This document shows, piece after piece, positions 52,080 through 53,765 of a DNA stretch of 64,000 nt (positions are counted from its first letter, which is position 1; each line of letters opens with the position of its first letter). The notes beneath the pieces are model-generated. The model was given only the letters and a program-made list of their open reading frames with translations. It searched no databases and was not told the origin of the DNA. Location: positions 2,427 through 66,426 of the forward strand of contig CACJIM010000002.1 in the NCBI GenBank assembly GCA_902593475.1, in the 5' to 3' direction. The DNA comes from an uncultured Candidatus Actinomarina sp. (GTDB taxonomy: Bacteria > Actinomycetota > Acidimicrobiia > Actinomarinales > Actinomarinaceae). A program made the translations under genes and the position numbers.

Positions 52080-53015
52080 ATGCACGTACCTGACGGATTT
52101 ATGAATGTAACTATGTCTGCCGCTACTGGAGTAATCAGTTTTGGCACATTGTGGGCATACATTAGATCAGCAAAAGATTTAATTGCAGATAAGTTTATTG
52201 CCTTAACGGGAATGATGTCTGCATTAATATTTGTTCTTCAAATGATAAACTTCCCTATAGCTGCTGGTACAAGTGGCCATTTACTTGGTGGTGCGCTTGC
52301 AGTTATAGTTTTAGGACCAAGATTAGGCTTAATTTGTCTATCAGTAGTAGTTATTATTCAATCTCTACTTTTTGCTGATGGGGGTCTTAGTGCTTTAGGA
52401 GTGAACGTTTTAAATATGGCAATAGTAACTAGTGCAACTAGTTGGTTTATTGTCAAATACTGGATAAAGTTCATTGGAAAAAATAAAACCTCTATTGTCT
52501 CTGTTAGTGTACTTGCAGGAATTTTGAGCGTCGTATTTTCATCAATAGCTTTTACAATCCAATATGCAATTGGTGGAACAATATCAATACCTGTAGGAAC
52601 AGTTTTGTTGGCCATGGTCACAACACATTTCATAATTGGTTTCGGTGAGGGAATAATTACAGCTCTTATTATCACTCTTTTGATTCGAGTAAGACCTGAT
52701 TTAATTTACGCGTATGAGAGAAGTGATGAAAATACAACCAAAGTATCTTTCTATGGTCTATTTATTATTCTTATTTTACTTTTTAGCCTTGTCACACCTT
52801 TTGCATCTTCATCTCCAGATGGCTTAGAATCCGTCGCGGAAGAGTTTGGCTTTACACAAACAGATGGAATAGTTCTGCTTCTTGACGACTATGGAATTAG
52901 TGCTGTAAATAATGATTTTATATCAACTGTTCTTAGTGCTTTACTTGGTGTTACTGTTTTGGCAATCATGTTTAATTTGATTATTTCCAGAAGAAAGAGT
53001 GGGAAAAATTCCTAA
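52080..53015 (+). CDS. cbiM: ECF Co/Ni transporter S component CbiM/NikM fused to a PDGLE domain
   Basis: MHVPDG N-terminus, SGHLLGG, ADGGLSALGVNVLNM, SSPDGLESVA. Confidence 0.92.
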   Translation: MHVPDGFMNVTMSAATGVISFGTLWAYIRSAKDLIADKFIALTGMMSALIFVLQMINFPIAAGTSGHLLGGALAVIVLGPRLGLICLSVVVIIQSLLFADGGLSALGVNVLNMAIVTSATSWFIVKYWIKFIGKNKTSIVSVSVLAGILSVVFSSIAFTIQYAIGGTISIPVGTVLLAMVTTHFIIGFGEGIITALIITLLIRVRPDLIYAYERSDENTTKVSFYGLFIILILLFSLVTPFASSSPDGLESVAEEFGFTQTDGIVLLLDDYGISAVNNDFISTVLSALLGVTVLAIMFNLIISRRKSGKNS

Positions 53016-53065
53016 AATTTTTTTTGATTTTTTAATCTTTTTTAGATAGATTTATATTACTTTTT

Positions 53066-53194
53066 ATGAAGAAAATCTTTATAGATGATCATTATAAGAA
53101 GTATAACGAGATAACCCTTGAGACAGGAAATCTGGAAACAGATTGCGGAGTTTTCAAGGGTTTTCTCATTTACAGACCTTTAAGCAATGATTAA
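53066..53194 (+). CDS. Possible 42-aa leader ORF overlapping the udg start
   Basis: MKKIFIDDHYKKYNEITLETGNLETDCGVFKGFLIYRPLSND; stop overlaps the udg ATG (ATGATTAA). Confidence 0.35.
   Translation: MKKIFIDDHYKKYNEITLETGNLETDCGVFKGFLIYRPLSND
53108..53167 (+). ncRNA. Unclassified long hairpin RNA element
   Basis: 15/16-bp outer stem GAGATAACCCTTGAGA/TTTCAAGGGTTTTCTC, purine-rich internal loop, AATCTG-GAAA-CAGATT apical hairpin. Confidence 0.45.
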
Positions 53195-53765
53195 TCAAAA
53201 AAAATTTAACATTTTAGAAAACGAATGTTCTAAATGTTCAAAGTGTTCTTTATCCTCTACTCGAAATAATGTTGTCTTTGGTAGAGGTAATCCGAACTCA
53301 AATCTCTTTGTGATAGGTGAAGGACCTGGCCAACAAGAAGACGAGCAGGGATTAGCATTTGTAGGAAGGGCTGGAAAAATGCTTGACAGTGCTTTTCTGT
53401 CTGTTGGAATTGACACGAATGAGGACTGTTATATATCAAATATTGTAAAGTGTCGACCTCCAAATAATAGAAAGCCATTAGCAAATGAAGTCAAAGAGTG
53501 CATCCCGTGGTTAAATGAACAAATTGAGTTGATTAAACCAAAAGTTATAGTCTTAGCTGGATCTACAGCAGTTCAATCGTACCTAGATATTGATGAGCCA
53601 ATTTCTAAATTAAGAGGAGAATGGATAGTTAGGAATGATATCAAGTATATGCCAATTTTTCACCCATCATATCTTTTGCGAAATCCTTCAAAAGAAAAAG
53701 GTAAACCAAAATGGTTAACTTGGCAGGATCTAAAAAAAGTCAAGAAAGAAATTGGCTCAGTTTGA
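53187..53765 (+). CDS. udg: Uracil-DNA glycosylase family 4 (Fe-S)
   Basis: CSKCSKC, VFGRG, IGEGPG..ED, FVGRAG, NIVKCRPP, FHPSYLLRN. Confidence 0.93.
   Translation: MINQKKFNILENECSKCSKCSLSSTRNNVVFGRGNPNSNLFVIGEGPGQQEDEQGLAFVGRAGKMLDSAFLSVGIDTNEDCYISNIVKCRPPNNRKPLANEVKECIPWLNEQIELIKPKVIVLAGSTAVQSYLDIDEPISKLRGEWIVRNDIKYMPIFHPSYLLRNPSKEKGKPKWLTWQDLKKVKKEIGSV

Follow-up and report, generated by a model that had tools for sequence, protein, structure and literature searches.

A probable small RNA gene with two conserved hairpins between cbiM and udg in Candidatus Actinomarina

Candidatus Actinomarina ranks among the smallest free-living bacteria in surface ocean waters and among the most abundant. 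The stretch of DNA analysed here, hereafter the window, comprises 64,000 nt of contig CACJIM010000002.1 (positions 2,427-66,426 of the forward strand) in the Candidatus Actinomarina assembly GCA_902593475.1, which is 0.84 Mb in size and 60% complete. On the plus strand of the window, a CbiM-PDGLE gene (cbiM) is followed by a UDG-superfamily gene (udg), which we take to be a family 4 uracil-DNA glycosylase from its N-terminal Cys cluster, and a conserved element of ~113-117 nt (~53059-53171, plus strand) lies between the two genes. [quoted passage not shown] The main text of the genome papers on this lineage describes no specific non-coding RNA. The genes and features of the locus, numbered by window position, are listed below.

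52080-53015, plus strand: CbiM-PDGLE gene (cbiM), the upstream neighbour (Pfam CbiM 3.6e-51, PDGLE 8.9e-07)
52998-53008, plus strand: box AGTGGGAAAAA in the last cbiM codons, at ~-61 to -51 from the predicted start; invariant in 30 of 31 distinct upstream sequences
53024-53029, plus strand: candidate -35 box TTGATT; TTGATT in 69 and TTGAAA in 8 of 80 distinct upstream sequences
53047-53052, plus strand: candidate -10 box TAGATT (family TAnnTT); T1, A2, T5 and T6 invariant in 16 species
53053-53058, plus strand: second TAnAnT hexamer, adjoining the -10 box
53059, plus strand: predicted transcription start, an A and the first base of the conserved block; placed by promoter geometry and the onset of conservation
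53060-53101, plus strand: 5′-terminal hairpin P1, stem CUUUUUAUGA-GA / UC-UCAUUAUAAGAAG with apical UCU/AGA; all cells paired in 62 distinct sequences
53102-53107, plus strand: variable, single-stranded linker, in which the frame-truncating stops of most relatives fall
53108-53167, plus strand: hairpin P2, with an invariant lower 14-16 bp, an A-R versus G-G-A internal loop, a covarying apical stem and a GNRA cap at 53135-53138
53161-53171, plus strand: U-rich tract UUUUCUCAUUU, probable terminator tail and RNA 3′ end, following the CCC/GGG core of P2; conserved in all relatives
53187-53765, plus strand: UDG-superfamily gene (udg), the downstream neighbour (Pfam UDG 7.8e-42)

A sequence-only reading of this region had singled out the hairpin at 53108-53167, which turned out to be the 3′ half of the element: the conserved block begins ~50 nt 5′ of it and contains a second hairpin at 53060-53101, preceded by a predicted promoter at 53024-53052. 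The first-noted hairpin folds as had been described, with -27.9 kcal/mol and z = -4.6 for a 91-nt piece. Its purine-rich internal loop was recovered as A53125 and G53126 opposite G53147, G53148 and A53149, closed by C53124-G53150 and G53127-C53146, and so was the 6-bp apical stem with its GAAA loop; the lower stem here consists of GAGA/UCUC plus AACCCUUGA../..UCAAGGGUU. The full RNA (53059-53175) gave a folding energy of -40.5 kcal/mol with z = -6.7, and none of 200 shuffles folded as well. The RNAalifold consensus is composed of two hairpins, P1, with a 12-bp stem, one bulge and a 3-bp apical stem, and P2, with a lower helix, a 2x3 purine loop, a lone G-C pair and an apical stem of 5-7 bp capped by GAAA or GCAA. 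When folded singly, all four divergent representatives that were used adopt P1 and P2 with z of -6.4 to -8.0. The sequences fall into a group 1, to which this window belongs, and a group 2, in which a 2-nt insertion on each strand (UU/AA) lengthens the G53127-C53146 pair and represents an indel-type compensation. In group 2 (for example L048:1540-1570), the linker and the P2 5′ strand can also form an 8-bp hairpin, AAGGGUUA-GAGA-UAACCCUU, with a GNRA loop, which competes with P1 and P2 and by inspection is absent from group 1, this window included. A K-turn in P2 was rejected on inspection, because group 1 fits (a 3-nt bulge GCG, then G-A/A-G) but group 2, with its UU/AA-extended G-C pair, does not. 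Likewise, an 11-nt GNRA receptor in P1, a dif-like site and a sarcin-ricin motif were discarded as partial resemblances that are not conserved.

The pairing proved to be conserved in the relatives, and covariation was found. Standard pairs fill 99.7% of the pair cells, both in the 29 genome sequences (set A3, recruited with a covariance model) and in the 62 distinct sequences that include metagenome contigs (those of alignment A4 were recruited with a fixed 3′ pattern, so that the invariance of the P2 3′ strand there is by construction), and the paired cells drop to 44-57% when the partners are slid by 1-3 columns. Compensatory changes were observed in five pairs, of which two lie in P1 and the other three among the five apical pairs of P2; for example, the P1 pair 12:41 is A-U in 19 and G-C in 39 sequences, and pair 13:40 is U-A in 54 and A-U in 4. 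The covariation score was matched by none of 500 shuffles. In the lower P2 helix, 12 of the 16 pairs never vary or deviate by unpaired cells alone, and these are uninformative on pairing. As for the strand, the minus strand folds equally well by energy alone, and the earlier call of the plus strand from G-U pairs was borne out: the P1 pairs 9:44 and 14:39 join G with U, in one order or the other, in 62 of the 62 distinct sequences, and two further pairs in P2 alternate between G-U and A-U. The plus strand is indicated because the invariant G-U pairs would be C-A mismatches on the minus strand. Covariance model hits score 110-140 bits on the plus strand versus 24-34 bits on the minus strand, the model being built on the former. 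Regarding selection, the RNA block has a mean pairwise identity of 88%, with 79 of 119 columns invariant among 30 species-level variants, and the identity elsewhere is 66% in the sampled last 300 nt of cbiM, 67% in the first 300 nt of udg and 65% in the spacer upstream of the block. The element therefore has a conserved secondary structure on one defined strand, as a free-standing sRNA gene does.

The same bases carry, as had been noted, an open reading frame of 42 codons (53066-53194, plus strand) that overlaps the udg start; the overlap comprises its last 8 nt, the udg ATG being at 53187. The idea of a dual RNA/peptide element that was attached to this frame was not supported by the comparison with relatives, in which 19 of 29 distinct variants are truncated, 2 of 29 are startless and substitutions show no third-position bias. 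Specifically, the frame spans 36-45 aa in 10 variants and meets a stop after 12-15 codons in the other 19. The start is ATG or GTG in 27 of the 29 and AAG in 2, which have no other in-frame start; in these AAG variants the P1 partner base is also changed and the pair is kept, and the alternation between ATG and GTG covaries with the P1 partner (A-U 19, G-C 39). Within the first 12 codons, variable sites are spread over codon positions 1, 2 and 3 without favouring the third, and 9 of the 11 third positions are constant. The frame has no Pfam match. The truncation of the frame, the loss of starts and the codon-position pattern therefore point to conservation at the nucleic-acid level, and by this comparison of variants the 42-codon frame is taken to be open here by chance and not to be a conserved gene. 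This corrects a likely mis-annotation as a hypothetical protein of 36-45 aa in genomes where the frame stays open.

The distribution of the element was determined with the covariance model, R1, which detected it once, on the plus strand, in 55 of the 64 Actinomarina genomes; among the 12 that are at least 90% complete, 11 carry it. The RNA-less genomes of the genus number nine, two of them 87-90% complete. By DNA search, the region was present in 23 of 24 sampled relatives in the genus. The covariance model gave no hit in the single sister-genus genome, the collection holding no other genomes of the order. When 185,579 species genomes were scanned with a sequence pattern, genuine copies turned up on Actinomarina-type contigs alone, and the non-Actinomarina pattern matches that were inspected were chance hits in G+C-rich, apparently coding DNA. 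More than 120 marine metagenome contigs, all >1 kb, carry the RNA. Among phage records there was no match, and the single pattern hit on a viral contig was a chance match. A repeated or mobile element (REP, MITE) was rejected, as there is one copy here and one per genome in the genus. A second, partial hit was obtained on another contig of G020, a bin with 5% contamination.

Four of the RNA-less genomes (G010, G055, G006 and G065) were searched with the window's proteins and contained no match to CbiM or UDG. The cbiM-RNA-udg block is therefore clade-specific within the genus. In the same four, the EamA homologue is only 35-38% identical and lies in another neighbourhood, with NUDIX, TrpRS and UvrD-like genes as read from ORF translations. 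Judged by these sequences, the four genomes are a divergent part of the genus. Since the RNA and any match to the two neighbouring proteins are absent from them together, a functional link to its neighbours may exist. In the sister genus (L177:1486-3910), cbiM is directly followed by cbiQ and a third ORF, possibly cbiO, and the CbiM-PDGLE gene of this window is solitary. The predicted RNA gene and udg thus occupy in Actinomarina the place that follows cbiM in the sister genus.

A promoter of its own is predicted in silico directly upstream of the element. The spacer between the -35 and -10 boxes is 17 nt long in 79 of 80 distinct upstream sequences, and its sequence varies. A -10 hexamer of the TANNNT type (TAnnTT-like) is present in ~75 of the 80, lying 7-8 nt from the C of CUUUUU, and the -10 box ends 6-7 nt ahead of the first conserved base. 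By this geometry the start of transcription is therefore placed at A53059, where the conserved block begins. A consensus scan missed this putative promoter because each hexamer matches 4 of 6 positions. Only three islands are conserved upstream, namely AGTGGGAAAAA, TTTTGATT and the two adjacent TAnnnT hexamers. The first of these, which overlaps the end of cbiM, shows no synonymous change, its rare GGG codon included, while the neighbouring codons vary, and the cbiM 3′ end of the RNA-less sister genus does not contain it. A simple promoter model leaves this box unaccounted for; it could be an UP-like element, a regulator site or a partner of the U-rich 3′ tail of the RNA, to which it is complementary, and it might link the element with the cbiM transcript. 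A long-range helix between the AGUGGGAAAA box and the 3′ tail was nevertheless set aside: it can be drawn on paper, but RNAalifold does not predict it and it shows no covariation. At the other end of the element, the CCC/GGG core of P2 is followed by UUUUCUCAUUU, and the U-tract past the full P2 stem is short (AUUU). From this arrangement we infer that P2 and UUUUCUCAUUU together form a probable intrinsic terminator; a simple terminator scan did not call P2, the loop limit of the scan being exceeded.

The relation of the element to udg differs among relatives. The gap between the RNA and the udg start was surveyed at 88 distinct loci: it measures 14-15 nt in 7, 24-29 nt in 20, 47-79 nt in 13 and 116-209 nt in 48. 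In this window the udg start lies 14 nt past the RNA and lacks its own -10 box. Where the gap exceeds 15 nt, a TANNNT box is present in most loci 6-10 nt ahead of the udg start, which implies a separate, near-leaderless udg promoter; none was found in the 14-15 nt variants. In most relatives (for example L026, L225 and L208) there is no room for a Shine-Dalgarno sequence between TANNNT and the udg start, which suggests a leaderless or near-leaderless udg mRNA there. The udg-coupled cis-regulatory leader of the sequence-only reading thus fits the 14-15 nt variant of this genome (7 of 88 loci) but not the other loci, where 24-209 nt and a box of its own separate udg from the RNA. As the coupling is confined to the 14-15 nt variants, it is therefore a property of a deletion variant and not a conserved function. 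An alternative hairpin formed through a copy of AACCCTT downstream of P2 was rejected for lack of conservation among the variants.

A second conserved non-coding element of ~150-170 nt was observed in the long RNA-udg spacers of about half of the relatives; the example in G016 lies at L026:1335-1500, on the minus strand of that locus. It contains a hairpin ACAAAU-GCUCCCUU-AUUUGU with a CU-rich, anti-Shine-Dalgarno-like loop, and also a hairpin of the CCCAGGAAC...GUUCCUGGG type. This second element is single-copy, contains no ORF and has no Rfam match (E<=1 on the longer spacer of a relative), and no matching sequence was found in the 60%-complete assembly studied here.

Comparison with known RNA families agreed with the earlier reading, which had recognised none. 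The Rfam scans, at the gathering threshold over the window and at E<=10 over 52950-53300, returned tRNAs and chance low scores only, with no hits to ribozymes. Cobalamin and NiCo riboswitches, to which the earlier reading had likewise been unable to match it, gave no hit at E<=10, and the element lies downstream of cbiM, not upstream. For SRP RNA (RF00169), neither the gathering threshold over the window nor E<=10 over 52950-53300 gave a hit, and the model, run at E<=1, detected none in 4 genus genomes, versus 13 of 14 positive control genomes. The Ffh M domain (PF02978) was found in none of 4 genus genomes. The SRP54 GTPase domain (PF00448), which represents Ffh and FtsY, was not found above the cut-off in 29 Actinomarina genomes (among the searched genomes G000-G024, G042, G068, G072, G077 and G080) and the sister genus, and two SRP54-domain genes each were found in 16 of 16 same-class genomes with E~1e-70. 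As controls within the genus, SecY was detected in 3 of 3 near-complete genomes and RNase P RNA in 5 of 5. The identity with SRP RNA was rejected on the motif, the model score and the missing Ffh and FtsY. Independently of the element, the Actinomarina lineage as a whole, sister genus included, appears to lack the signal recognition particle pathway; no mention of this was found in the literature searched, and it is more surprising than the RNA itself. 6S RNA (RF00013) was likewise rejected, with no local hit and with two separate hairpins of 42 and 60 nt in place of a ~180-nt rod with a central bubble; the genus-wide 6S search was empty, which carries little weight, as the model also misses 9 of 14 controls.

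Several other explanations of the locus were weighed, and the two that assign the RNA to a neighbouring mRNA draw on its fixed position. It could be a cis-acting 5′ leader of udg, in which P2 would terminate conditionally and read-through would be decided by P1 or by a ligand or protein. The RNA invariably precedes udg, in the same orientation; in this genome udg, 14 nt past the RNA and lacking a -10 box, must be read through P2; and ~40% of the sequences (group 2) possess the AAGGGUUA-GAGA-UAACCCUU hairpin that competes with the P2 5′ strand. Such a leader is nonetheless unlikely, since no more than 7 of 88 loci have a spacer of 14-15 nt, the others having 24-209 nt of unrelated, variable sequence with a TANNNT box for udg, since the alternative hairpin is missing in group 1 including this window, and since P2, in contrast to a typical expression platform, matches P1 in conservation. 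Alternatively, the element might be a structured 3′ UTR of the cbiM mRNA with its terminator, or an sRNA processed from it, with no promoter of its own. This would suit its position immediately behind cbiM, in the same orientation, in every genome, the joint absence of RNA and cbiM from four genomes, and a possible pairing of the invariant box with the 3′ tail (AGUGGGAAAA with UUUUCUCAUU, 10 pairs including G-U). A -35 box, a 17-nt spacer and a -10 box at a fixed distance, in an interval of 45 nt between the cbiM stop and P1 that is otherwise only 65% identical, speak against it, as does the long-range pairing itself, which folding does not predict and both partners of which are invariant and show no covariation; we consider this reading quite unlikely.

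The remaining explanations concern the nature of the product. A short leaderless peptide of 12-13 aa, (M/V)KK(I/V)FI(D/E)(D/N)HYKK, possibly from a dual-function RNA, would account for first 12 codons that are open in all variants, for ATG or GTG in 27 of 29, and for a second TAnAnT that ends 7-8 nt before the start codon, a geometry like that at the leaderless-type udg start. We regard it as very improbable, because two variants have AAG with no alternative start and keep the P1 pair by compensation, the length ranges from 12 to 45 aa across variants, there is no third-position excess and 9 of 11 third positions are fixed although the neighbouring genes are 66-67% identical, and neither a Shine-Dalgarno sequence nor a Pfam match was found. 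A divergent housekeeping RNA, SRP RNA or 6S RNA, that Rfam models fail to recognise is suggested by the long irregular GNRA-capped hairpin with conserved purine-rich loops and by the fact that Rfam finds no SRP or 6S RNA in the genus. However, an Ffh partner was not found in the genus genomes searched, the loop and the internal loop are 6-7 bp apart and not 2-3, no AGG/AGCA motif is present, the size of ~115 nt and the division into two hairpins, with no central bubble, do not resemble 6S RNA, and nine genomes of the genus, two of them 87-90% complete, do without it, all of which makes this identity extremely unlikely. We assign an equally slight chance to an element that works as DNA and not as RNA, such as an inverted-repeat insertion relic or a recombination site. 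By inspection, imperfect 10-bp inverted repeats (AGTGGGAAAA and TTTTCTCATT, 8 of 10 matching) flank the unit, which sits where cbiQ-cbiO lie in the sister genus; against this, it is single-copy in every genome, at the DNA level its invariant G-U pairs would amount to A-C mismatches, A and G interchange at sites facing a U, and in near-complete genomes it lies ~50-100 kb from a contig end, the origin not being located.

Taken together, the element is probably a free-standing non-coding sRNA gene of ~113-117 nt that is specific to Candidatus Actinomarina, its transcript being predicted. The new sRNA that the sequence-only reading had offered as one option is consistent with the lack of an Rfam family, the conserved structure with covariation and the conserved promoter predicted for it. 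According to this model, a sigma-70-type promoter, TTGATT-17 nt-TAnnTT, would start transcription at A53059; the transcript would fold into the 5′-terminal P1 and the long P2; and the G+C core of P2 with UUUUCUCAUUU would act as the intrinsic terminator at which the ~115-nt RNA ends. In this genome, a deletion would have moved udg to 14 nt from the terminator and removed its -10 box, so that udg here is probably read through from the promoter of the RNA or of cbiM, as a local side effect and not a conserved role.

As to function, the conservation pattern suggests that the RNA acts through its shape and not through a long antisense seed, and that a protein partner may read it. A shape-read, protein-binding RNA is favoured over a base-pairing sRNA because both strands of the lower P2 helix stay constant, as do its purine loop and GNRA cap, and within P2 only the apical stem has diverged, with compensating changes. 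Nowhere does the RNA have an extended, conserved unpaired segment that could act as an antisense seed; RNAduplex against the neighbouring start regions gave no better result than random windows, and a ten-mer complement search of the 0.84-Mb assembly returned only chance-level A+T-rich hits. Being better conserved than its protein-coding neighbours in a ~97% coding genome, the element is therefore very unlikely to be idle. It is improbable, but conceivable, that the RNA, in a lineage that unusually appears to lack the signal recognition particle, forms the RNA subunit of, or specifically regulates, an unrecognised ribonucleoprotein central to the cell, or that it is a ligand-sensing RNA of a new class in which the P2 terminator gates udg. 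Either of these, if true, would explain why ~170 bp of non-coding DNA is under stronger constraint than the neighbouring genes despite median spacers of 3 bp. For the preferred reading of a free-standing sRNA gene, alignments A3 and A4 together with model R1 could seed a new Rfam family, and the locus offers a precise target for metatranscriptome mapping.

The element was finally compared with known systems. With SRP RNA (RF00169) it shares a length of about 100 nt, a dominant long irregular hairpin, a GNRA tetraloop and conserved purine-rich internal loops. Domain IV of 4.5S RNA has a GNRA loop on a stem of 2-3 bp, followed by a symmetric loop with AGG/AGCA-type residues, whereas the apical stem of the Actinomarina RNA is 6-7 bp long, its internal loop sets A-R against G-G-A without AGG/AGCA, and an extra hairpin lies at the 5′ side. 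Attenuators and riboswitch leaders resemble it as structured RNAs with a terminator-like hairpin, which in this genome is directly before a gene; they differ in that most relatives have a udg promoter box and a spacer of 24-209 nt, with no conserved alternative pairing and no aptamer match. In kind, the element is a new RNA family of a familiar type, the lineage-specific small RNA gene. Compared with 6C RNA of Actinobacteria (RF01066) and the promoter-to-terminator sRNA genes of Gram-positive bacteria, the Actinomarina RNA has no C-rich loops, evident single-stranded seed or model match, and its conservation resides in the helix and the internal loop rather than in the loops, but like them it is small and lineage-conserved and consists of two hairpins with a promoter of its own, as predicted, and a terminator-like hairpin at the 3′ end.
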